A DNA stretch of 44,420 nucleotides from a virus. The translations under genes and the position numbers were made by a program. The notes below the pieces were generated by a model. It was given only the letters and a program-made list of their open reading frames with translations. It had not been told where the DNA came from and did not search any database. Shown here piece by piece: positions 2,808 to 41,071 of the stretch. The stretch's first letter is position 1. Every line of letters starts with the position of its first letter. The stretch covers positions 1-44,420 of the IMG/VR virus record IMGVR_UViG_3300045988_035600. One strand, given 5' to 3'.

Positions 2808-3097
2808 CCTTCCACCTCCTCATAAGTTTCACTGAATATATCTGGCTTACACGGATAAAATTCACCGTGTACACCGCGGATGATGTAATCACCAATGTTT
2901 TCAAGATGTTCGCCCTCAAGTGTCTTAATGACCAGACCTCCTGGAACCTTCCAATGGTCAATATAGAAATTCTTACCTTCTGCCGACATGTACTGGTCTG
3001 TGCATTGATAGTCCGTCAGGAAATCGAACATTTCTCGATGGTTTGTACCAGTCCACTGTACTGTATCAATTACAACTGGCTTCTTTCTGTACTTCAT
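2804..3097 (-). CDS. Conserved phage hypothetical protein (MKYRKKPVVI...GDYIIRGVHGEFYPCKPDIF type)
   Basis: 97-aa track ORF with SD gaggtggttgtATG. I recall this motif pattern from many phage early regions. Function unknown. Confidence 0.7.
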   Translation of the reverse strand: MKYRKKPVVIDTVQWTGTNHREMFDFLTDYQCTDQYMSAEGKNFYIDHWKVPGGLVIKTLEGEHLENIGDYIIRGVHGEFYPCKPDIFSETYEEVEG

Positions 3098-3456
3098 ACA
3101 ACCACCTCACTATCATCTGGCATCTGAAACAGGATTGATTTTCTTATCTCATTTCCATAGCCTTTTAATACAGCAATTCCATGCGCCACACTTTCTTTTG
3201 TATCATAGCTTCCTGTGTATGCTGATCCTGCCAACCCACTGCCAATAATTTCACCGGATTTGTAATCCATGTAAGCTTCCTGAATCATATCCAGTACTTT
3301 CATGGCTTTTGCTTTATCCGAATATTCTCCTAGCAGATAACTGCATCCGGTTATGTATGATGTTATAATTGTTTTTATAGGTCCTTCCGCAATTTCAGTG
3401 CCTGCCATAGAATTGAGATTAATCAATACTTCTCTATTCTGACTTCTGATTAACAT
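3094..3456 (-). CDS. Hypothetical protein
   Basis: 120-aa track ORF with SD gaggaggacgcgaaATG. Confidence 0.7.
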   Translation of the reverse strand: MLIRSQNREVLINLNSMAGTEIAEGPIKTIITSYITGCSYLLGEYSDKAKAMKVLDMIQEAYMDYKSGEIIGSGLAGSAYTGSYDTKESVAHGIAVLKGYGNEIRKSILFQMPDDSEVVV

Positions 3457-3656
3457 TTCGCGTCCTCCTCGTTGTTCGCTCTTTTATTCCATGCTTCTAT
3501 TGCATATTCGGGATTGTTATAATGTCCTGTACCGCAAAGACAGTTACCGCATCTTACAAGATACTGAGCATTACCTAAATATCCCATTTCATCATCGGTA
3601 AAAATTTGCGCCTCTTCTCCACAAAACGGGCACGGCTTTAACTGTTCCATTTTCAT
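3450..3656 (-). CDS. Lar-family (restriction alleviation)-like zinc-ribbon protein
   Basis: CPFCG...(x)...RCGNCLCGT...EYAIEAWNKR matches the Lar-family pattern as I recall it. The start was chosen at MKMEQL after gtgagg. The track start at 3686 is also possible. Confidence 0.6.
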   Translation of the reverse strand: MKMEQLKPCPFCGEEAQIFTDDEMGYLGNAQYLVRCGNCLCGTGHYNNPEYAIEAWNKRANNEEDAKC

Positions 3657-7477: not shown

Positions 7478-8067
7478 TAGTTGAATGGCATCTCCTCATC
7501 TGCACCGTCTGGAACACTCATGAAATCATCTGAATTAGTGCGTGAAGAATTATTACTGTTCAAAACTCTGTCTTTTGGGAGTTTGTAATCACCGGAGCGA
7601 ATTTTATCGACTTTACAGAAGGATGCCAGATTGGTAGCTCTTCCAATGCTTCCGTCATTCTTTTCATATTCTCTTTCATTAAAAAGACCGCCGGCAATCT
7701 TACCTTTGAATTTCTGCTCATCCCAGTCAAAGTGGTATCCCGGATTGGATTCTTCAAGAGCTTCTGTAAATGTTTTAAAGCGTCTCTTTGTCCAGTTATC
7801 TTTCTCTGATCCGTCATCATTCGGAATATTCAGAAGATAATTGCAGTGCCATTTCTTATCCTCGCTCTGCTGGGCTTTATATTCTTTTGTATAGAAGCCC
7901 GCATATTCGCCTTCTGCAATATCGCAACTGATTTTTACATACTGACCTACACTGTTATTGCAAACTTCGGCTCCAAGAATCTTTACAATATAACCACCTT
8001 TTGGAAGCACTTCGTAATCTCCGTAAGCCTGTGTTTTTTCGTAATCTCCAAATCTTTTAATTGCCAT
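7477..8067 (-). CDS. DUF669-family SSB-like protein (Sak4-associated)
   Basis: YEVLPKGGYIVKILGAEV...IAEGEYAGFY pattern, acidic C-terminal tip DGADEEMPFN, and position next to the AAA_24 ATPase. Confidence 0.65.
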   Translation of the reverse strand: MAIKRFGDYEKTQAYGDYEVLPKGGYIVKILGAEVCNNSVGQYVKISCDIAEGEYAGFYTKEYKAQQSEDKKWHCNYLLNIPNDDGSEKDNWTKRRFKTFTEALEESNPGYHFDWDEQKFKGKIAGGLFNEREYEKNDGSIGRATNLASFCKVDKIRSGDYKLPKDRVLNSNNSSRTNSDDFMSVPDGADEEMPFN

Positions 8068-15907: not shown

Positions 15908-15935
15908 TCCCGGGGTACTATCCCCGGGAGTTTTT
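15908..15935. terminator. Terminator hairpin between the convergent int and lysin transcription units
   Basis: TCCCGGGG, tactat, CCCCGGGA, then gTTTTT on the plus strand. It abuts the lysin stop codon on the minus strand. Confidence 0.7.
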
Positions 15936-17304
15936 ATTTATGAATTTCTGAAATTCTGGTAAATACGCCCTTCGGGACAAACTCAAATACAAACCCATCA
16001 TCATTCGGGTACGGGATTCTGACGAAGTACCATTTAAGTCCCGAACTGTCAGTTTCTGTGTACTTCATCACATCCACGACCGCACCCTTTTTGAGTTTCG
16101 GGAACAGCTTGGACGGGCTTTTGGTGTTCGATTTGGTATAACATTTGCTGTCTTTTTTCATTCGGGCTACATAGGCAACTGTATTTTGCTTTTTCGTAAC
16201 AGTGTCATTTGCCGCCGCACCATTTTCGGAATATCGCAAAACGCAATCCCACGGGTAATTTCTGTAGCTTCTAATCAGGAACTCTTTTCCTGTCTGGTCT
16301 CCCGGCTGTCCGCCATGAGCAGTACCTTTTTCGTTGATACTGGCTTCTACTTCTTTTCCATTTCCGCAGTACATTGCGACATGGTGTGTCTCATTAAGTA
16401 GCACATCTCCTCTTAAAAGTCCAGAACCAGTTGAACGATTAACTTTGCTGGTCACGTCTTTGAACCCGCATGAAAGAAATACAGTTCTCATATCACCAGT
16501 ATAGGTGGCTCCTTTTGTTTTGACCGGAACTCCGGCGTTCTGCCACGCCTGAATCACCGCTGAAGAACAGTCAAAATCTCCTTTTTCTCCCCAGCGATAA
16601 TCCTGATCGTACCCATGAGAGCTGTCCTGTGCCCATGATTCCATTTGTTTTGTTGCTTTTTCTGTCTTGCTCATATTATCTTGCACCTCCTCTGGGAAAT
16701 ATTTTTTTAACGCGTTATAAACAAATCTCTGCCGGCTCTTATATGCCCCGACTTGGTTCCCTGTATCGGTCTGGCAAGCTGCATAGAGATTATCGAGCGT
16801 ATATGGTTTCTTAGTCTTTGCCAGAATCCTCGTTACTGCTCCCTGTCCACCTTGGTGTCTAAAGTTCACGCACATAGCTTGCGCTCTAGTATCCGTAACG
16901 CCCTGTTTAAGGGCTTCATCTGCATAGGCGGCTAATTGCTCATCCATAAGGCTATCTTGGCATTTAACGCCCAAATCGGACGAAATAAGGGCAATTATGG
17001 TATCAGCAAGCTGTGATACTCGGGAAATATTGAAACAATCCCAGTTTGCGGTCTGGACTTGTTCCAAAAGTCTGACCTTGTCTATTTTCTCCCACTGTTC
17101 CGGGTCGGCATTGTAAATCCGTTCCAGAAGGATCTTGGATTCAGTTGCGTACCATGCTCCTGCCCCGATTGTGATTGCGTGTTCTTCAGAAGAATTAGTG
17201 TAGGCTTCTGTGAAGTCCGAATAATCTTGCTGTCCGTAAACCTGTCCGCCGGTTTCGACTGCGTAAATAATCTTTCTGAGAACTGCTTTCTGCTCGTTTG
17301 TCAT
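15934..17304 (-). CDS. Endolysin: N-terminal lysozyme-like domain (tentative), NlpC/P60 endopeptidase, C-terminal SH3b-like domain
   Basis: GDFDCSSAVIQAW...THHVAMYCGNGKEVEAS gives the NlpC/P60 Cys-His pair. The C-terminus ...KKGAVVDVMKYTETDSSGLKWYFVRI is SH3-like. The N-terminus AVETGGQVYGQQDYSDFT...AITIGAGAW is reminiscent of the T4-lysozyme E/D/T spacing. Confidence 0.8.
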   Translation of the reverse strand: MTNEQKAVLRKIIYAVETGGQVYGQQDYSDFTEAYTNSSEEHAITIGAGAWYATESKILLERIYNADPEQWEKIDKVRLLEQVQTANWDCFNISRVSQLADTIIALISSDLGVKCQDSLMDEQLAAYADEALKQGVTDTRAQAMCVNFRHQGGQGAVTRILAKTKKPYTLDNLYAACQTDTGNQVGAYKSRQRFVYNALKKYFPEEVQDNMSKTEKATKQMESWAQDSSHGYDQDYRWGEKGDFDCSSAVIQAWQNAGVPVKTKGATYTGDMRTVFLSCGFKDVTSKVNRSTGSGLLRGDVLLNETHHVAMYCGNGKEVEASINEKGTAHGGQPGDQTGKEFLIRSYRNYPWDCVLRYSENGAAANDTVTKKQNTVAYVARMKKDSKCYTKSNTKSPSKLFPKLKKGAVVDVMKYTETDSSGLKWYFVRIPYPNDDGFVFEFVPKGVFTRISEIHK

Positions 17305-30288: not shown

Positions 30289-30540
30289 TTACAGTTTTAA
30301 ATATTTATATCTGTTCTTCTTTGCGTATTTAATGGCTTCTTCTACGCTGTCAAAGCGTTGTCTAACATCCTCTTTCTTGGAGATTCCCTTGGCATGATAA
30401 TTACCCTCATCGTCCCAGTTCGATATTACATTTCTTGTTCCAGTCATATAATAGGAATAGCCCTGTTTGTTTGGCTCGACTTGCTTATGTATGACAACAC
30501 TTCCACTTCCGAAACCGCTTGTGCCGCCTCTACCACCCAT
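30289..30540 (-). CDS. Small protein with an MGGRGGTSG N-terminus
   Basis: 83-aa track ORF. SD gaggtgaagtgtaATG lies inside the end of the DUF4417 gene. Confidence 0.7.
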   Translation of the reverse strand: MGGRGGTSGFGSGSVVIHKQVEPNKQGYSYYMTGTRNVISNWDDEGNYHAKGISKKEDVRQRFDSVEEAIKYAKKNRYKYLKL

Positions 30541-31174
30541 TACACTTCACCTCGTTAAATTTGTCAGAAAATGCCTTAATTCTAACAATATTACCCTTAC
30601 ACTCTTCCGGGACTTTTCCGTAGAAAATAATACTTTCTGGATGCAATCGTTCAATCATAGCATTATAGCCAGATAAGAATAGGCGTTTTTTGCCTAAACT
30701 GTTCATGCATCCAACCGAACTTACCGCAACCGTTCCGCCCTCTGGCTCACCGTCAAAACACCAATCGTAAGAATCTGGCGTACTCCATGAGATTGCCGGA
30801 ATTACATTGCAACCATATTCTTGCAGATATGCGCCAATCCAATGTTTGCGATAATGATTATAAATCTGGATAGCTTTTGGGAAATCGGTGTAGGTACTAA
30901 AATCCGGTGTTAGAACATACCGGAATTGGCTCAGCTTATCAACATATCTGTCTGGATTCCTCCATAATGCGTCAAACTGGTAATCATCCAGGAAGAAATG
31001 AACCGCTTTCCCTTCTGGATTACTGCATTTACCTCTTGCGTAATTGAATCCGACAAACTCACAGTTACCCTCGAATAATTCCGGTTCTAACTGCGGTATG
31101 CCGTATTCACCAACGCCGGGAAAGATACGGCGGTTTAGATTTTCGTAAGCTATACTCGTCTCTCGGTTTGCCAT
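30530..31174 (-). CDS. DUF4417-like protein
   Basis: VHFFLDDYQFDALWRNPDRYVDKL..FRYVLTPDFSTYTDFPKAIQIYNHYRKHWIGAYLQEYGCNVIPAISW matches DUF4417 as I recall the family. Confidence 0.65.
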   Translation of the reverse strand: MANRETSIAYENLNRRIFPGVGEYGIPQLEPELFEGNCEFVGFNYARGKCSNPEGKAVHFFLDDYQFDALWRNPDRYVDKLSQFRYVLTPDFSTYTDFPKAIQIYNHYRKHWIGAYLQEYGCNVIPAISWSTPDSYDWCFDGEPEGGTVAVSSVGCMNSLGKKRLFLSGYNAMIERLHPESIIFYGKVPEECKGNIVRIKAFSDKFNEVKCNGW

Positions 31175-31177
31175 AGA

Positions 31178-31672
31178 TTACTTCTTTCCACTTCCAAAGA
31201 ACCACGAATCAAAGTTTTTCATTCTGCGCTTTCTGGCTCTGTCATAAGTGGTGGTAGTACGGCTTGTATCGTGCAAAGCACTTGTATCGCCTTTTTCAGA
31301 AGCCTTTGAAAATTTGTGCAATTCATCTCTCATGGCTGTACTGGCATTGACTAATTTTCGATGTTCTATAGCAAGTCTTTGATTTTTAAATAACGCCTCT
31401 GCACTTCCAAGTTTTGCGATTTTCCTTTTACTCTCACTCAATCTGTCATTTATATAATTCATTGTCTTTACTGCTTCACTCTTTGTCTTGATTGACTTAA
31501 AATAGCTAGTGTTTTCTGAATTAATGACCTTCTCGAGTTTATTGTCTTTCTTGACAATTCCACTTCCTCTGAGTGCGTCACTTTTCTTTGCAGAGTTGAA
31601 ATATACTTTTGACATTAACTTAGAAACTGGCTTCTCGTTGTTTAATCCACTGCTTCCACCACGTCCACCCAT
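31178..31672 (-). CDS. Basic coiled-coil protein with an MGGRGGSSG N-terminus
   Basis: 164-aa track ORF, Lys/Ser-rich, C-terminus ...RKRRMKNFDSWFFGSGKK. Confidence 0.7.
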   Translation of the reverse strand: MGGRGGSSGLNNEKPVSKLMSKVYFNSAKKSDALRGSGIVKKDNKLEKVINSENTSYFKSIKTKSEAVKTMNYINDRLSESKRKIAKLGSAEALFKNQRLAIEHRKLVNASTAMRDELHKFSKASEKGDTSALHDTSRTTTTYDRARKRRMKNFDSWFFGSGKK

Positions 31673-31676
31673 AAAA

Positions 31677-31946
31677 TCACTCTTTCATAATACTTTGCTT
31701 AATAATCTGATTCACACCAGTAGCCGACAATCCATTAAACATACCTACTGCAACTGCCGTGATATAATCCGTTGCCGGAAAATCCGGGATAATTCCCATT
31801 CCGACTGCTCCGAGAATCCCGCCAGTAACCGCCATGATCACCGGAATCCATTCATCAGAGATTCTTTTTGATGCCTTACAGCCCATTCCTACGATGTAGC
31901 AAATCATAACGATTGCTATACATGAGCCTAATGTTGTAATGTCCAT
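31677..31946 (-). CDS. Three-TM small membrane protein, holin-like
   Basis: The start is at MDITTLG after gaggtgataataATG. TM1 is followed by KASKRISDEWIPVIMAVTGGILGAVG and then AVAVGMFNGLSATGVNQIIKQ, which resembles Gram-positive phage holin families. Confidence 0.55.
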   Translation of the reverse strand: MDITTLGSCIAIVMICYIVGMGCKASKRISDEWIPVIMAVTGGILGAVGMGIIPDFPATDYITAVAVGMFNGLSATGVNQIIKQSIMKE

Positions 31947-31956
31947 TATTATCACC

Positions 31957-34772: not shown

Positions 34773-34844
34773 TTGGAAAGGCAGGAATCGAACCTGTGAC
34801 ACATAGCTTACAAGACTACTGCTCTACCACTGAGCTACATTCCA
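34773..34844 (-). tRNA. tRNA, anticodon UGU (Thr) by hand fold; no encoded CCA
   Basis: TGGAATG TA GCTC AGTGGTA GAGC A GTAGT CTTGTAA GCTAT GTGTC ACAGG TTCGATT CCTGC CTTTCCA A. U8, A14, G18G19, U33, A37 and TTCGA are all present. There is one T-T mismatch in the acceptor stem and an A-C at 49:65. Confidence 0.8.
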
Positions 34845-36273: not shown

Positions 36274-37053
36274 TCAGCAATTACATCCAGTGTTGCATCC
36301 GCATCCGTAATATGTGTTCGGATTAGGAACCTGATATGCCGGAATCGGCGCCGGATTAATCGCATTAATGAGCTGCTGTGTCTGTGAAGCCATTGCAGTT
36401 GTGAGAAGTGCGCTCTGGCGGTCCTGAGAAGCAGCACGTCTGAGGTCGTTATTTTCAGCCTGGAGATTGGAAATCTTCTCGTTGCACAGGTAATCAAGGA
36501 TTGCCCTTGTTCCGGCGTTCTGGCTGTCGATAATATCTCTAGTGTTGTTGTTCATGGTGTTCTGTAATGCACAGGTGTTCTGTGCCATGTTGTAGTTCAC
36601 GCCCTGGATAGCTTCTCTGGTTTCACAGCAGCAATTTGCAAGCTGAGACTGTAATGCGTTTGCGTTCTGCATATTAGCTACAGTATCGGCATTAATAGCC
36701 TGCTGGATGCCGAAACCAGTCTGCATGATGTTGGTGTTGATTCCATTGAATCCGGTAAGCATACCATTATTCATGGCATAGAAGCCATCGCACAGACCAC
36801 TGTTGATTCCGTCAAGCTTGCTAATCACTGCGGAATTGTCAAATCCTCTCTGAATGTCTGCCTGAGTAGCTGCTGTGGCTACATATCCGCCGCCGTTTCC
36901 ATTATTGCCCCATCCGTTGTTTCCCCATCCGAAGAAAGCAAAAATAAATAAAACAATAATCCACCAGCTGCCATCTCCACCAAACATGCCGTCATTATTT
37001 CTACCGTTTCCAGTAGCAGCGGCAATATCTGCTAAGCTATAATTTCCATCCAT
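36274..37053 (-). CDS. Single-pass membrane protein: G/N/W-rich juxtamembrane segment, N/Q-rich ectodomain with conserved Cys, C-terminal YYGCGCNTGCNC
   Basis: TM WWIIVLFIFAFFGWG, then NNGWGNNGNGGGY, ...LANCCCETREAIQG...NTCALQN...LDYLCNEK..., and the tail CGCNTGCNC. SD aaaggagattatattATG. Confidence 0.75.
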   Translation of the reverse strand: MDGNYSLADIAAATGNGRNNDGMFGGDGSWWIIVLFIFAFFGWGNNGWGNNGNGGGYVATAATQADIQRGFDNSAVISKLDGINSGLCDGFYAMNNGMLTGFNGINTNIMQTGFGIQQAINADTVANMQNANALQSQLANCCCETREAIQGVNYNMAQNTCALQNTMNNNTRDIIDSQNAGTRAILDYLCNEKISNLQAENNDLRRAASQDRQSALLTTAMASQTQQLINAINPAPIPAYQVPNPNTYYGCGCNTGCNC

Positions 37054-37105: not shown

Positions 37106-37327
37106 CTATTTCATTCCTTTCAACATGTGCTGGAATTGCCCTGCCATCTGTTGAACTTGATTGAGCTGCTGTTGAGAAATCTTTCCAGACTGCAACATTT
37201 TCTCGACTTCTGCTTTCGGATCTCCCTTAAAATTCTGTTTAAACTGCATAAACTGTTGTATCATCTGCATTGGTCCGTTTCCCTGCGGCATCCCGCCGCC
37301 AAGTGCGTTAAATAATGGATTACTCAT
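37106..37327 (-). CDS. Q/M-rich small protein (73 aa)
   Basis: MSNPLFNALGGGMPQGNGPMQMIQQFMQFKQNF...QQQLNQVQQMAGQFQHMLKGMK. The second ATG has the best SD spacing after agggagg. Confidence 0.65.
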   Translation of the reverse strand: MSNPLFNALGGGMPQGNGPMQMIQQFMQFKQNFKGDPKAEVEKMLQSGKISQQQLNQVQQMAGQFQHMLKGMK

Positions 37328-37790
37328 CTGCATTTCCTCCCTTGGTCGCTGATTCCTGTACGGTATTAGCCCTAACAGGTTCAGAAAATGAATTTAATCG
37401 GTTTATGATAACTTCGTATTTGCCTTTCAAATCATCGTATTCCTGTCGAGTAACATATTTACTGTCCATGTTCTGAACAGGCTGCTTAGGCGGCATCTGA
37501 GAACCTACCTCGTGGTATTCAAATGTCCGCAGTGGTTGTGGCATACCGGATACATCTGTGGATTTTATGTAGAACTTTTCACTTTCGCTGTCCATCAGCA
37601 AAACACTTGTCCCGGGTGCTACCAGATAGGATTTTGCGCCGACTTCGCCGGATACCCACAGGATACCGCTATTATTCTGCTGTGGTTGCTGTACTGGTTG
37701 AGCTGGAATCTGGACAGGCTGTTGCTGGAACTGGTTCATTTGCCCAGGGACGCCAAAGCTATATTGATAAGGATTATTATATAATGCCAT
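37320..37790 (-). CDS. Protein with a Q/P-rich N-terminus and a beta-rich core
   Basis: MALYNNPYQYSFGVPGQMNQFQQQPVQIPAQPVQQPQQNNSGILWVSGEVGAKSYLVAPGTSVLLMDSESEKFYIKS... SD aaaggcggtgtataagATG. Confidence 0.7.
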   Translation of the reverse strand: MALYNNPYQYSFGVPGQMNQFQQQPVQIPAQPVQQPQQNNSGILWVSGEVGAKSYLVAPGTSVLLMDSESEKFYIKSTDVSGMPQPLRTFEYHEVGSQMPPKQPVQNMDSKYVTRQEYDDLKGKYEVIINRLNSFSEPVRANTVQESATKGGNADE

Positions 37791-37867
37791 CTTATACACC
37801 GCCTTTCTGATTATATTTTTACACAGAAGTATTAAACTAAGAAGTTCAAAAAAGTATCAAAAAAGTA

Positions 37868-37899
37868 TTGACATATCACCCACTGAGTGGTATTATAAT
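37868..37899 (+). promoter_or_regulatory. Consensus sigma-70-type promoter with an embedded palindromic operator
   Basis: TTGACA (37868-73), 17 nt, TATTAT (37891-96), overlapping TATAAT (37894-99). The palindrome CCACTgAGTGG (37880-90) sits in the spacer. AAAAAGTAT occurs twice just upstream. Confidence 0.7.
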
Positions 37900-37942
37900 A
37901 TCAGAAACAGGGAAGAACAAAAAAATCAAGGAGGAAATAGAA

Positions 37943-38230
37943 ATGAAAATTAAAATTTATTGTAATTACGGTTGTTTATCGGCTGAAAAAAGAAACGTTT
38001 ACACATATGGATTCCCAGAAGCCACAGCTACTTGCTGGGACGAAATGACAGTGGAAGTCCCGGAAGGCTGGGAAGTGTTCGAAAATTCCATGGGAAGCTT
38101 AATGGTAACATCTCCTTGGGGCTTTGTTTACGTGATAAATGAAGTACTTCAGGGCAACGAAAAACCATGCTTTTATGCATTAGATAAAAACATGAACGGA
38201 CACCGCCAGTATTTAAAAGTTTTGGATTGA
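37943..38230 (+). CDS. Small hypothetical protein (95 aa), first gene of the plus-strand operon
   Basis: SD caaggaggaaatagaaATG, MKIKIYCNYGCLSAEKRNVYTYGFPEATATCWDEM... Confidence 0.7.
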   Translation: MKIKIYCNYGCLSAEKRNVYTYGFPEATATCWDEMTVEVPEGWEVFENSMGSLMVTSPWGFVYVINEVLQGNEKPCFYALDKNMNGHRQYLKVLD

Positions 38231-38247
38231 TAGGAGGAATAAAAAAA

Positions 38248-38481
38248 ATGATAAAATTAAACACATCATCTTACGTTTACGGGCAGAACGACACAATAGA
38301 GGTCGGAGAGGAATACTATTTCGGTCAGCTCTGGGACGGTGACGGGGACGGCGAAGAACTGATAGAGTCTGAAGCAATCGCCATATATCAGGACGGCGAG
38401 GAATATATTGTTGACTTCGAGATTTTGGAGTCTGCGGAGGATATTTTACAAACCCGAGTTAAGGTTACCGGGATTAACTAG
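38248..38481 (+). CDS. Small, very acidic protein (77 aa)
   Basis: SD taggaggaataaaaaaaATG. About 19 D/E against 3 K/R by hand count (WDGDGDGEELIESEA...). Confidence 0.7.
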   Translation: MIKLNTSSYVYGQNDTIEVGEEYYFGQLWDGDGDGEELIESEAIAIYQDGEEYIVDFEILESAEDILQTRVKVTGIN

Positions 38482-38492
38482 GAGGCAGGAAA

Positions 38493-38708
38493 ATGAAGTA
38501 TATAATTATGGATTATACAGACGGTGATTGTTTCACCGATGAATTTGAGAACAAAGAAGAAGCCCTTCAGGAAGCGGATGAACAATGGGAGCATCTAACA
38601 AGGTGCGAAAAGAAACACAGATCGGAGTTTTACGTGCTGGAAAGCATCAATCCGGACGAGGACACGCCCGATCATTACGACGGAGGCATTGTGAAGCGTT
38701 GGAAATAA
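38493..38708 (+). CDS. Small acidic protein (71 aa)
   Basis: SD taggaggcaggaaaATG. About 20 D/E against 9 K/R. Confidence 0.7.
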   Translation: MKYIIMDYTDGDCFTDEFENKEEALQEADEQWEHLTRCEKKHRSEFYVLESINPDEDTPDHYDGGIVKRWK

Positions 38709-38730
38709 AAAGAAGAAAGAAAGGAACAAT

Positions 38731-38898
38731 ATGAACATCAAAGAAATTAGATTAATTTCCGGGTTAAGCCAGCAGGCTTTTTCCGATAAATACAAAATTC
38801 CCAAAAGGACAATTGAAAACTGGGAAGGCGGTAAAAGAAATCCACCAGAATACGTAATTTTATTGCTTGAAAGAGCTGTAAAAGAAGATTTTGCATAA
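38731..38898 (+). CDS. Mini HTH regulator (55 aa, XRE/MqsA-like HTH), hand-called
   Basis: MNIKEIRLISGLSQQAFSDKYKIPKRTIENWEGGKRNPPEYVILLLERAVKEDFA. SD gaaaggaacaatATG. Below the track cutoff. Confidence 0.7.
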   Translation: MNIKEIRLISGLSQQAFSDKYKIPKRTIENWEGGKRNPPEYVILLLERAVKEDFA

Positions 38899-38902
38899 AA
38901 AG

Positions 38903-38929
38903 AAGGAGGGGTAAATTGCCTCTCCTTTT
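38903..38929. terminator. Bidirectional terminator between the plus-strand operon and the convergent minus-strand gene
   Basis: AAGGAGGGG taaattg CCTCTCCTT with T-runs on both strands. Confidence 0.55.
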
Positions 38930-39128
38930 AGCATACTTTTATAATCTTACTGTTTACTCTTCTGCTTAATCTCTTTACGGTAGATATGCTCACATTCATC
39001 TGTTCAGCACAGTATTCGAGCGTATATTCCTTGCATCTCAGCCGGAACAGTCTTTCTTCGTCCGGTGTGAAATTACACTCTATCAAGAATCTGTCTATAT
39101 CTTTCTTCGTGAACACATATAATTTCAT
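38928..39128 (-). CDS. Small sigma-70 region-4-like HTH protein
   Basis: ...TPDEERLFRLRCKEYTLEYCAEQMNVSISTVKRLSRRVNSKI... The start is at the second ATG after aagggg. Confidence 0.6.
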   Translation of the reverse strand: MKLYVFTKKDIDRFLIECNFTPDEERLFRLRCKEYTLEYCAEQMNVSISTVKRLSRRVNSKIIKVC

Positions 39129-39148
39129 GAGCATACCCCTTACTAATG

Positions 39149-39458: not shown

Positions 39459-39842
39459 CTACTCCTTTTCCCAGTAGTATACCGGGATTTCATTACCACT
39501 ATCCCATGTATCGTAATATTTGCCATTCTGTACCGTCACTACGTGTCCATCTATACAGAGAATGTATGTGCCTGTCGGATGGTCTGTGCAAAAGTCGTTG
39601 ACTGTATAGATATATCGTTCTGATTGTTCAATCAGCTTGCGTCTGTACCCACGTTTATAGAGGTACGCTCCCCAGACATAATTTGCACTTGGCATATCTG
39701 ACAAAGCGCACGCCTGTACCATTAATCCGGCGAATACTGTTTCCCAGTCGAAACCGGTTGCCTTGCATATTGCCCGGACAACGCAATCTCCTGTTCTCTT
39801 ATCCTTAACGGGATTCGGATTATAATATTCCCATCTATCCAT
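39459..39842 (-). CDS. Putative papain-like cysteine peptidase-fold protein
   Basis: NPNP...RTGDCVVRAI (Cys20) ... ILCIDGHVVTV (His100) ... YYDTWDS. ATGA-coupled to the minor capsid gene. Confidence 0.45.
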   Translation of the reverse strand: MDRWEYYNPNPVKDKRTGDCVVRAICKATGFDWETVFAGLMVQACALSDMPSANYVWGAYLYKRGYRRKLIEQSERYIYTVNDFCTDHPTGTYILCIDGHVVTVQNGKYYDTWDSGNEIPVYYWEKE

Positions 39843-41071
39843 CAGTCAATCCCCTTTGCTGTTTTATATCTCTTTGCCGCTCCTCTGGCTTTTGCGGCGT
39901 TCCGACGATTCCACTTAGCGATCATGAGCCGGTCTTGCAGCTCTCTTAGATCATTGTCTTTGCAGTAAGCCTTGTATGCAGCATTTTGTTTCTGCAAAAG
40001 ATAAGACTTCCGGTCAAGGTCTTGTTGTAATGCGAATTTTGTCTGTTCGTCCTTGCAGTTATCAACCGCCGCTTGCATTCCAAGGACTTCTCGCTTCGTT
40101 TTACGGATTCTTCGTTCATAAGTACGTTGTCGTTGTTCCTTTTCGTACTGTTTGCCTTTGTTGGCTTTATCCTGTGCTGATAGTTCTGCATAGGGGTTAA
40201 ATTCCCCGTCACTTGCCCCAAAACTATGCCGGCAGTTGACCCCTGACAGTCCACTCGCCGTTCCATATCCGGTCAATGAGAACGGCGGAAATTTCTTACT
40301 CTTGCCAGAGCGAGAGTATATCTTGCCTTGCCACCATGCGTGATTTCCCGGATTCTCGCCGCCGTCACCTGTTCTGGCTCCCATGTGAGCACTGACCAGA
40401 ACTAAATCCCAGCCCATTTCTTCCATGCGTTTGAGGGATATATCTCCAGTAGCCTGAGCCACGCCAGTTCTGACAGAACGTGCGACTGCTGTTTCGATCG
40501 TGTCTTTTCTGCCAGATGGATATGTGACCGTAACGCCATCACTCACAACGTTATTAACTGCCTCTTTGATGGCTTGCGTATACCCAACCGCCCCAGTCAT
40601 TACATGATTATAGGCAAGGTCGCATTGCTCAATATAGAGCCTCTGAGCGGCACTTGCAGTTGTTCTTGTGAAGTTCTTCCACTCTCCCATAGTCGCAAGC
40701 ATATTTCGCTCCATGAGTCTTATCATAGCTGGTGACTGTTCGAGCGGTACAGGGCTTAATCCTGCCGCCTTATATACCTTATCATCATAGTTCATTGCAG
40801 TGATTCCTGCATCTTCAAACGCTTCAAGAAGTTCCTGCTGTTCACGTTTGGTATATTTGGATAATTCTGCCAGAATGTCCTCTAGCAGTTCACCGGATTC
40901 CTGCAGTGTTCTGATCCTCCACGCATCGGCATTGGTCAGAATATAATCCTCACCTCTGCCAATTCTTGCCATCATTCTCGACACAATCTCAGAGATGATG
41001 TACTGATGCAGTTCTTCTACTATCTGTTCACTGCCCTCTGTAATTTGCCGTAAATATTCTGGGCTTAACAT
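39842..41071 (-). CDS. Minor capsid / head morphogenesis protein (Phage_min_cap2 / MuF-like)
   Basis: 409 aa directly after the portal gene. ...VSAHMGARTGDGGENPGNHAWWQGKIYS... Basic coiled-coil C-terminus. Confidence 0.75.
   Translation of the reverse strand: MLSPEYLRQITEGSEQIVEELHQYIISEIVSRMMARIGRGEDYILTNADAWRIRTLQESGELLEDILAELSKYTKREQQELLEAFEDAGITAMNYDDKVYKAAGLSPVPLEQSPAMIRLMERNMLATMGEWKNFTRTTASAAQRLYIEQCDLAYNHVMTGAVGYTQAIKEAVNNVVSDGVTVTYPSGRKDTIETAVARSVRTGVAQATGDISLKRMEEMGWDLVLVSAHMGARTGDGGENPGNHAWWQGKIYSRSGKSKKFPPFSLTGYGTASGLSGVNCRHSFGASDGEFNPYAELSAQDKANKGKQYEKEQRQRTYERRIRKTKREVLGMQAAVDNCKDEQTKFALQQDLDRKSYLLQKQNAAYKAYCKDNDLRELQDRLMIAKWNRRNAAKARGAAKRYKTAKGID

Follow-up and report, generated by a model that had tools for sequence, protein, structure and literature searches.

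In a 44,420-nucleotide (nt) stretch of viral DNA (IMG/VR record IMGVR_UViG_3300045988_035600, the whole of which is referred to here as the window), a gene encoding a DUF4417 protein is flanked by two genes whose otherwise unrelated products begin with the peptide MGGRGG(S/T)SG. The GGRG core of this peptide, which we call the tag, stands at the start of small proteins in tailed phages of two phyla, Firmicutes and Actinobacteria, where the tagged gene is almost always found next to a DUF4417 gene. We are highly confident that the tag and its linkage to DUF4417 are real. We hypothesize that polymorphic, effector-like proteins are coupled to DUF4417 through the tag, which would serve for their recognition or processing and perhaps for their delivery in virions, and we give this hypothesis an even chance of being correct.

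A conserved N-terminal tag paired with DUF4417

All three genes are on the minus strand. The first tagged gene, T164 (31178..31672), is an open reading frame (ORF) of 164 residues with the tag at codons 1–9 (31646..31672). Its body is helical and very basic, and the C-terminus, TTTTYDRARKRRMKNFDSWF, is conserved. The second, T83 (30289..30540), encodes 83 residues in which the tag (codons 1–9, 30514..30540) is followed by a short Gly/Ser linker and a small α/β body. Between them, the DUF4417 gene (30530..31174), the conserved partner of tagged genes, encodes 214 residues that match PF14386 at E = 6.9e-58 (195.6 bits versus a cut-off of 28.9, covering profile positions 4–182 of 183) as well as phrog_8680 and phrog_940. 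The tags were read from the sequence and by degenerate-pattern and six-frame searches: the pattern ATGGGNGGNMGNGGNGG (MGGRGG) has two sites in the 44.4-kb window (0/100 dinucleotide-preserving shuffles), and the six-frame translation of the window holds GGRGG nowhere beyond T164 and T83. No in-frame alternative start is available to T164 or T83 because stop codons lie 3 and 5 codons upstream, respectively. The placement of the motif on two ORFs around DUF4417, as reported in a first-pass annotation of this DNA, is therefore confirmed. That annotation had also stated that about a third of the tag bases differ, nearly all synonymously, and that the rest of the two proteins is unrelated, and both statements hold. 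The tag DNA is ATGGGTGGACGTGGTGGAAGCAGTGGA in T164 (MGGRGGSSG) and ATGGGTGGTAGAGGCGGCACAAGCGGT in T83 (MGGRGGTSG), such that 9 of 27 bases differ, seven in synonymous codon pairs and two making the Ser/Thr change, and BLASTP returns no alignment between the two proteins even at E ≤ 100.

Homologs were recovered for both proteins, 129 for T164, all of them small stand-alone proteins, and 18 for T83, whose gene occurs in only ~35 of 81 closely related phages. Most homologs in both families start MGGRG. Across the T164 alignment, which reaches down to 37% identity, every sequence has R4 and G5, and very few depart from G2, G3 or S8. Both families also contain leader forms, in which M-x2-4-(N/D)LQ(F/Y)F directly precedes GGRG. 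Six T164 homologs (P0024, P0025, P0028, P0033, P0088 and P0106) start MV(I/M)(D/N)LQ(F/Y)FGGRG, and examples from this family include MVIDLQFF-GGRGGASG, MVMNLQYF-GGRGGTSG and MVEMNLQFF-GGRGAS; the T83 homologs P0127 and P0133 start MVMNLQYFGGRGG and MLKMDLQFFGGRG (MVMNLQYF-GGRGGSSG and MLKMDLQFF-GGRGSGSG). In the window itself no ORF has a (D/N)LQ(F/L/Y)F leader at its N-terminus, and T164 and T83 start M-GGRGG. Neither protein contains a toxin domain recognisable by family searches. T164 matches no family in Pfam, PHROG, NCBIfam or PADLOC, sequence and profile searches of the PDB with it were uninformative, and a Foldseek search with its model finds no matching fold in the PDB; the same family collections give for T83 sub-threshold matches to NDUS4 (its only Pfam match) and Cas11a alone.

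IMG/VR viral contigs were scanned for DNA encoding the leader pattern (N/D)LQ(F/Y)FGGRG, yielding at least 132 matches in at least 120 loci where a rough estimate of chance expectation is a few matches. All 132 matches listed lie 1–5 codons from the start of an ORF of 80–225 amino acids (aa). The 132 leader-type tags listed are encoded by 51 distinct 27-mers in which every synonymous position varies, and the existence of 51 synonymous 27-nt versions indicates that selection acts on the tag peptide and not on the DNA, in agreement with what had been proposed from the two window genes. When all loci are pooled, 253 distinct tagged proteins fall into at least 49 BLASTP clusters, 13 of which mix leader and leaderless members, so the tag is common to unrelated proteins on a scale of at least 49 families. 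Tag positions 5–8, which the search pattern left free, are [GSA] in 96%, [SAGT] in 86%, [SG] in 73% and G in 55% of cases, giving the consensus GGRG-[G/S/A]-[S/A/G]-[S/G]-G. Behind it there is usually a flexible linker rich in Gly and Ser, ~13 residues long at the median and as long as ~80 residues in actinophages. The tagged proteins are small (median 137 aa) and strongly basic: their median net charge is +11, whereas that of 1587 ORFs taken from these loci as controls is 0 (p = 3e-19).

The pairing with DUF4417 was examined from both sides. On the side of the leader-type tags, the tagged ORF starts a few bases from the end of a same-strand DUF4417 gene in ~117 of the 120 loci listed (~98%), and in some of these loci two or three consecutive tagged genes follow DUF4417. 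For leaderless tags, 98 of 120 matches have a same-strand DUF4417 gene within 700 nt, corresponding to ~95% of evaluable genes; the remaining 22 comprise ~11 at a locus edge, ~6 that resemble chance matches and ~5 that seem genuine but unpaired. On the DUF4417 side, 111 genes were selected by the pattern HFFxDDY, with a limit of 60 nt on the overlap of a tagged gene. A tagged gene abuts 91 of them, on the downstream side of 62, the upstream side of 21 and both sides of 8, and for another 5 it is no more than 1.5 kb away, so that ~82–95% of DUF4417 genes have a tagged neighbour overall. Among the 15 negatives, 8 are short of flanking sequence, and at least two of the other seven (L282 and L322) have tagged starts that overlap DUF4417 by more than 60 nt. 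In 41 loci inspected for it, no tagged ORF lies on the strand opposite DUF4417. A separate, independent set of gene calls, for which Pfam assignments were precomputed, likewise places a DUF4417 gene overlapping the start of P0024, upstream of a terminase gene.

The first-pass annotation had suggested tabulating proteins that begin MGGRGG with their neighbours, and this exercise shows a widespread tag with DUF4417 almost always adjoining. DUF4417 had been treated there as flanking scenery; its flanking position stands, but the near-obligatory pairing makes it part of the central regularity. Head or late-structural sites are not the only ones that such modules occupy, and they are often found just upstream of terminase genes or by the cos end. 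The sites observed are just upstream of terS/terL, the gap between portal and MuF-like genes, the head-tail connector genes (as in the window) and the left cos end of cluster A actinophages, and some cassettes directly adjoin portal and MuF-like genes.

A separate arrangement is seen in ~16–20 IMG/VR loci (L280, L305, L319, L326, L332, L346, L351, L357, L368 and L373 among them), in which DUF4417 overlaps by 28–29 nt the start of a gene for a protein of 330–576 aa. By N-terminal sequence these are putative MuF-like or minor-capsid-like proteins, and in most of these loci one or more tagged genes lie just upstream. Internal GGRG or LQFF sites were considered in the MuF-like genes downstream of DUF4417, and none carry them.

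The DUF4417 family itself is large, with more than 3000 homologs in the protein database and members in 509 deposited phage genomes, including D29, L5 and A25. The module of tag and DUF4417 occurs in uncultured gut phages (IMG/VR), in Clostridia-type metagenome-assembled genomes and in Dorea phage DO134P1. Roseburia phage Jekyll has DUF4417, then a leader-type T83-like gene, then a leaderless 131-aa gene, and Christensenellales phage NatCom_6392 has the variant start MGTRGSSS. Streptococcus phage Str01 carries the module, with matching hits in A25 and other Streptococcus phages, and the actinophages that carry it include Mycobacterium phages Bugsy, Rifter, Finemlucis, Bromden and D29 and Gordonia phage Epsocamisio. 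In several of these genomes the tag is hidden because public start codons were apparently called downstream of the MGGRG sequence, and in two actinophages of a Gly-rich linker as well. The ORF of D29 gp2 (L387) extends from the annotated start at 1318 to an ATG at 1063 that encodes MGGRGSAGSGG, Epsocamisio gp2 (L503, 1098–1985) extends from 1335 to an ATG at 1098, and Str01_54 (= A25 gp27; L201, ~3061–3471) starts 8 codons upstream of the annotated ATG. In the L5 reference the frame upstream of the gp2 counterpart is interrupted.

What do the tagged proteins carry behind the tag? For most of them no family can be assigned, and the exceptions are varied. The ADP-ribosyltransferase family PF03496 (ADPrib_exo_Tox) is found behind MGGRG and a Gly-rich linker in Bugsy gp3 (E ~4e-22) and in the Epsocamisio gp2 ORF extended to its upstream ATG (E ~4e-21). 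The zincin motif HExxH appears as HELGH in Rifter gp2, which is annotated as a metalloprotease, and as HEMGH in an ORF of locus L086, and some tagged proteins bear a JAB-like HNHP motif. Of the Pfam families, Ntox24 alone is hit repeatedly within the commonest tagged family (~130 aa), by 4 of 18 members (best E 3.9e-5), and sequence and profile searches of the PDB with this family gave nothing informative. The body of the extended D29 gp2 ORF (1063–2097) matches DUF3626 (PF12294, E = 1.8e-7, above cut-off), a further domain of unknown function to occur as tagged cargo. A cargo protein of the Christensenellales phage was suspected by eye of being an ADP-ribosyltransferase, a suspicion that Pfam did not confirm. 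In polymorphic toxin systems the place directly behind each toxin gene is taken by its immunity gene. Here the tagged gene is followed by a tRNA, terminase genes or the end of the linear record in Jekyll, DO134P1 and Str01, and by small ORFs that may or may not be immunity genes in Bugsy, Rifter and NatCom_6392.

Two further loci bear on the cargo. In Streptococcus phage SpGS-1 (L203, 3123–3869), gp30 lies downstream of a ParB-DUF4417 fusion and contains a tag-like KINFTLGGGRGA ~60 residues inside the annotated ORF, together with an HNHP motif reminiscent of JAB/RadC. In IMGVR_UViG_3300022601_000845 (L289), a leaderless tagged protein (MGGRGGSSHRNTGG...) starts 6 nt past the DUF4417 stop and has an internal Prp-like site, LSLQFF|AQKE, ~25 residues in, which hints at a second processing step in some cargo.

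Predicted maturation of the tag and possible fate of tagged proteins

A question raised by these data is how the same peptide comes to stand behind a single Met in some proteins and behind a leader in others. Methionine aminopeptidase takes off Met ahead of Gly, and by this route Met1 would be stripped from both window proteins, leaving a mature protein that begins Gly-Gly-Arg-Gly. In many relatives from Firmicutes phages, a second route to this N-terminus would be a Prp-type cut after the L27-like leader. The leaders match the P side of the published L27/Prp cleavage motif, MLxx(D/N)LQ(F/L)F'A(S/H)KK (PMC9405229). Their presence on non-homologous phage proteins resembles the situation in phage 80alpha, whose scaffold and capsid proteins are also cleaved by Prp, and further phage proteins with no homology to one another have been reported to bear the motif (PMC5744158). 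Given this leader of the Firmicutes L27/Prp type and a Met that is removable before Gly, both forms are predicted to mature to GGRG. On the strength of the motif, we consider cleavage of the leader forms by Prp probable. Every leader-type tag recovered came from a Firmicutes-type phage or prophage, the genome hits being Clostridia-type metagenome-assembled genomes, and actinophage forms are all leaderless, a distribution that is consistent with dependence on Prp. The tag differs from the L27/Prp leaders in that T164 and T83 are leaderless, that its P1' residue is Gly and not Ala, that conservation lies on the P' side (GGRG...) and persists without a leader and in Actinobacteria phages, and that the link to DUF4417 is foreign to Prp systems. 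The alternation of leader and leaderless forms, seen in both window families and in 13 families overall, makes the earlier suggestion of a processing or targeting signal plausible. In the AlphaFold2 model of T164 (predicted local distance difference test score, pLDDT, 82), residues 2–10 fall below 50 and are disordered while the remainder is helical, as would be expected of a docking peptide.

We propose that the tag serves as an N-terminal handle that marks polymorphic small basic accessory proteins of phages, some of which are toxin-like enzymes. DUF4417, which is co-encoded and often translationally coupled, would bind or act on the tag irrespective of the cargo domain behind it, and could thereby be an adaptor, a chaperone or a processing partner for all of these proteins. 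The late-expressed proteins would in this way be routed together, for example into the capsid or onto packaged DNA, so as to be delivered into the next host. From the gene arrangement, we judge that recognition of or action on the tag by DUF4417 could go either way, with the two outcomes evenly balanced. That the cargo travels in the virion we regard as less likely than not. The same tentative standing applies to the broadest form of the proposal, in which DUF4417 and the GGRG tag would constitute an unrecognised cargo-handling system of tailed phages in Firmicutes and Actinobacteria: a single conserved protein would recognise the exposed GGRG end, or process it covalently, and load toxins or effectors for injection. 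The late transcription of left-arm genes in phage Kampy (PMC4626039) fits the late expression assumed here.

Several known systems provide points of comparison. In phage T4, a short N-terminal peptide, the capsid-targeting sequence, is present on unrelated basic, non-essential late proteins (the internal proteins and the Alt ADP-ribosyltransferase) and is removed inside the procapsid by the phage prohead protease. The GGRG tag is likewise a short N-terminal peptide common to unrelated basic proteins (the clusters counted above), ADP-ribosyltransferases among them, and its predicted processing would also expose a new N-terminus. However, the T4 signal has another sequence and is removed, whereas the GGRG peptide would be retained and has a dedicated partner gene in DUF4417. 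No prohead protease gene was noticed between portal and capsid in the window, where all but two small ORFs were scanned. In extracellular contractile injection systems such as Photorhabdus virulence cassettes, and in type III secretion with its chaperone-bound effector N-termini, diverse effectors carry a disordered N-terminal signal that is recognised by a conserved loading factor encoded nearby; machinery, sequences and organisms all differ from those of the tag and DUF4417, so the analogy is one of logic only.

An architectural parallel is offered by MuF polymorphic toxins (PMC5576092) and MuF-VIP2 proteins (PMC7302621), late-region products in which toxin-like domains that vary at the C-terminus likewise stand behind a constant N-terminal module. 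This feature of polymorphic toxins is present in the tagged set through its PF03496, HExxH and Ntox24 members, the PF03496 ADP-ribosyltransferase domain occurs in both contexts, and some tagged cassettes lie directly beside a MuF-like gene. The tag differs in being ~8 residues plus a low-complexity linker with no MuF domain, and DUF4417 is encoded apart from it. T164, T83 and ten other tagged representatives have neither a MuF nor any other N-terminal domain, and the minor capsid protein 2 of the window (39842..41071) has a gene of its own and contains no GGRG. In Microbacterium phages, the capsid protein MuF carries a fused VIP2 ADP-ribosyltransferase domain, which is predicted to be virion-borne because of that fusion (PMC7302621). 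Virion delivery of tagged proteins is attractive because the architecture mirrors that of MuF-toxin fusions, because tagged actinophage cargo shares the VIP2 domain with these fusions, because the cargo is basic like known internal proteins and because some cassettes abut portal and MuF genes.

A number of observations argue against the proposal that DUF4417 handles tagged cargo for delivery. The evidence that ties the tag to DUF4417 is synteny and translational coupling only, and four loci (L392, L427, L449 and L474) hold genuine-looking tagged genes with no DUF4417 nearby. The P1' residue of the tags is Gly versus Ala in all documented Prp substrates. In the one virion proteome found for a phage with the module, liquid chromatography–mass spectrometry of Str01 virions detected neither the tagged protein APZ81907 nor the DUF4417 protein APZ81899 in a dataset of 12 proteins obtained with stringent filtering and low sensitivity (PMC6195288). 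A profile search of 1.84 billion representative proteins for T164 fusions gave 48 matches that are small and stand-alone, the sole exception being a marginal 941-aa protein at E = 6.5e-4. DUF4417 has no sequence or profile relatives in the PDB, and a Foldseek search of the PDB with its AlphaFold2 model (pLDDT 80; predicted template-modelling score 0.80; α/β fold) gave at best E = 0.03 to EAL/TIM-barrel-like folds with a template-modelling (TM) score of ~0.3, from which no conclusion can be drawn.

Phage proteins with Prp-type leaders are already known, as are capsid-targeting peptides and polymorphic toxins of phages. The GGRG tag, its retention after processing and its pairing with DUF4417 are apparently undescribed in the searchable literature and in Pfam, NCBIfam, PHROG and PADLOC. 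Literature searches with the strings MGGRGG, GGRGGSSG, LQFFGGRG and FGGRGG returned papers on eukaryotic GAR/RGG proteins only and none on phages, and the core tag, with its single Arg, contains no RGG/RG repeats. The MuF toxin paper mentions neither the tag nor DUF4417 (PMC5576092).

If the proposal is correct, it would place DUF4417, a large domain with no assigned function, in a functional context for the first time, and tag and DUF4417 would be a counterpart, on separate polypeptides, of the MuF-toxin fusions and the T4 targeting peptide. It would supply a sequence rule for finding phage accessory, toxin and possibly anti-defence proteins in metagenomes (a start of M-GGRG, or of GGRG behind a Prp-type leader, and then a linker rich in Gly and Ser), would predict that more phage proteins depend on the host protease Prp and would correct start codons in well-known genomes (D29 gp2, Str01_54 = A25 gp27 and Epsocamisio gp2). 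The deployment of non-MuF phage toxins, such as the VIP2-like ADP-ribosyltransferases of cluster A, would become testable in D29 with M. smegmatis and in A25 with S. pyogenes. Should the tag route proteins into virions, it would also be a short portable signal for loading cargo, including foreign cargo, into particles of phages with Gram-positive hosts.

Competing explanations

The literature searched gives no function for DUF4417. One alternative hypothesis is that the tag is a substrate site and DUF4417 an enzyme that modifies or ligates the exposed N-terminal glycine, at the extreme tethering the protein to phage DNA or another macromolecule. Both maturation routes would yield a free Gly-Gly N-terminus, DUF4417 has many invariant polar residues (including H59, D63, D64, D91, H107, H111, C139 and S152/S153), and fusions of a ParB-type N-terminal DNA-binding domain to DUF4417 are common (also bioRxiv 10.1101/2025.10.10.680097). 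The module also lies beside terminase genes or the cos end, and the cargo is very basic. After DUF4417 homologs, the matches of the model in BFVD are phage proteins labelled queuine tRNA-ribosyltransferase, which are weak (E 4e-3 to 6e-3, TM 0.40–0.47), and one depositor gave this same label to a DUF4417 protein (Tyson gp113). The model suggests, but does not establish, a TGT/DpdA-like fold for DUF4417. These fold matches are below a safe threshold, with root-mean-square deviations of 6–12 Å, and the PDB gave no match better than E = 0.03; chemistry of this kind is unreported for the DUF4417 family, and the data fit an enzyme and a binding partner alike. We therefore regard the substrate-site explanation as improbable, though it retains some weight. 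A different enzymatic assignment, a clan CE (Ulp1/adenain-like) cysteine protease, was considered from the invariant H..D..Q..C order of DUF4417 and was rejected because the Gln-Cys spacing misfits and no such fold match appeared.

A second alternative is that the tag has no dedicated partner and is a remnant of a Prp site or a generic linker, its synteny reflecting exchange of cassettes at a recombination hotspot beside DUF4417. Cassette content is indeed variable: in phages more than 93% identical at T164, the position beside DUF4417 holds T83, a 70-aa ORF, a 66-aa ORF or nothing, one further phage (L049) adds a third tagged family, and the cassette occupies different genomic positions in different phages. 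However, the tag is encoded by many synonymous variants, as the 9 differing bases of the window pair illustrate, and thus offers no conserved DNA as a recombination handle. GGRG is moreover invariant in leaderless proteins over the full range of T164 identities, and in Actinobacteria phages, whose hosts lack a Prp-processed long L27 (phyla according to PMC9405229), and the tag is kept by genes on either side of DUF4417 and across gaps that range from -160 to +100 nt. This explanation is accordingly also an unlikely one, to which we assign about the same small share of belief as to the substrate site.

The third tagged family was seen in the phages of L049 and L052 (IMGVR_UViG_3300029378_000027), whose T164 is 96% identical to that of the window and in which T83 is absent. 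A gene at 7660–8199 of L049, between T164 and DUF4417, encodes a tagged protein of 179 aa (MGGRGAAGGLVSG...). Its presence and the lack of T83 show that cassettes turn over within a very short evolutionary span.

The overlap between DUF4417 and T83 suggests a further explanation, that MGGR is fixed by dual coding or translational coupling with the DUF4417 C-terminus, ..NGW-stop. The first 11 nt of T83 overlap the end of DUF4417 (30530..30540) such that AAT GGG TGG TAG (NGW*) in one frame is ATG GGT GGT AGA (MGGR) in the other, and this -8 overlap of stop and start is the commonest arrangement. The overlap is not required for the tag, however, since T164 is tagged without overlapping DUF4417, many tagged genes start 2–100 nt past the stop or lie upstream of DUF4417, GGRG in leader forms falls ~8 codons beyond the overlap and the conserved tag positions 5–8 fall outside it. 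Because the tag persists across gaps of ~-160 to +100 nt and in genes upstream of DUF4417, dual coding cannot explain it, and this account is largely refuted by the non-overlapping cases and very improbable. Equally remote is the idea that the tag is an export signal for secreted toxins, for example via the Hol44-type protein encoded directly upstream of T164 in the window and most close relatives, since, although some cargo is toxin-like, most other cassettes of tag and DUF4417 lack the holin-like gene, neither a hydrophobic segment nor any other known feature of secretion signals is present in the tag and no immunity gene is evident beside toxin-like cargo.

Neighbouring features of the window

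The surroundings of the tagged genes are those of a late operon in a temperate siphovirus-like phage. The head genes comprise terminase, portal, minor capsid protein 2 (PF06152), scaffold, major capsid protein and head-tail adaptor (phrog_541). After the adaptor comes a variable block consisting of a phrog_1233 ORF, the holin-like gene, T164, DUF4417 and T83, and beyond it lie phrog_3366, tail genes and a tape measure gene, with endolysin and integrase farther along. Counts of promoters and terminators that might bound the cassette were no higher than in shuffled sequence. The holin-like gene (31677..31955, minus strand) encodes a small membrane protein of the Hol44 family (PF16079, E = 4.8e-23; phrog_1129). 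It is a variable companion and an uncertain member of the cassette, kept in most, but not all, related loci. It sits within the head-tail connector block, ~14 kb from the endolysin gene (15934..17304; NlpC/P60 and ELLD).

The minus-strand head module is broken between the minor capsid protein 2 and scaffold genes by an island of plus-strand ORFs (37868..38898) that includes an HTH_3 protein (38731..38898). Beside this island, a minus-strand gene (38928..39134) encodes a 68-aa protein with a Sigma70_r4-like match. Two minus-strand ORFs of low complexity, neither matching a family, also lie between the minor capsid and scaffold genes: one (36274..37053) encodes 259 aa rich in Gly, Asn and Gln with a Cys-rich tail, GCGCNTGCNC, and the other (37320..37799) encodes 159 aa rich in Gln and Pro. 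The late operon also contains a tRNA-Thr gene with anticodon tgt (34773..34844, minus strand), which closely precedes the scaffold gene.

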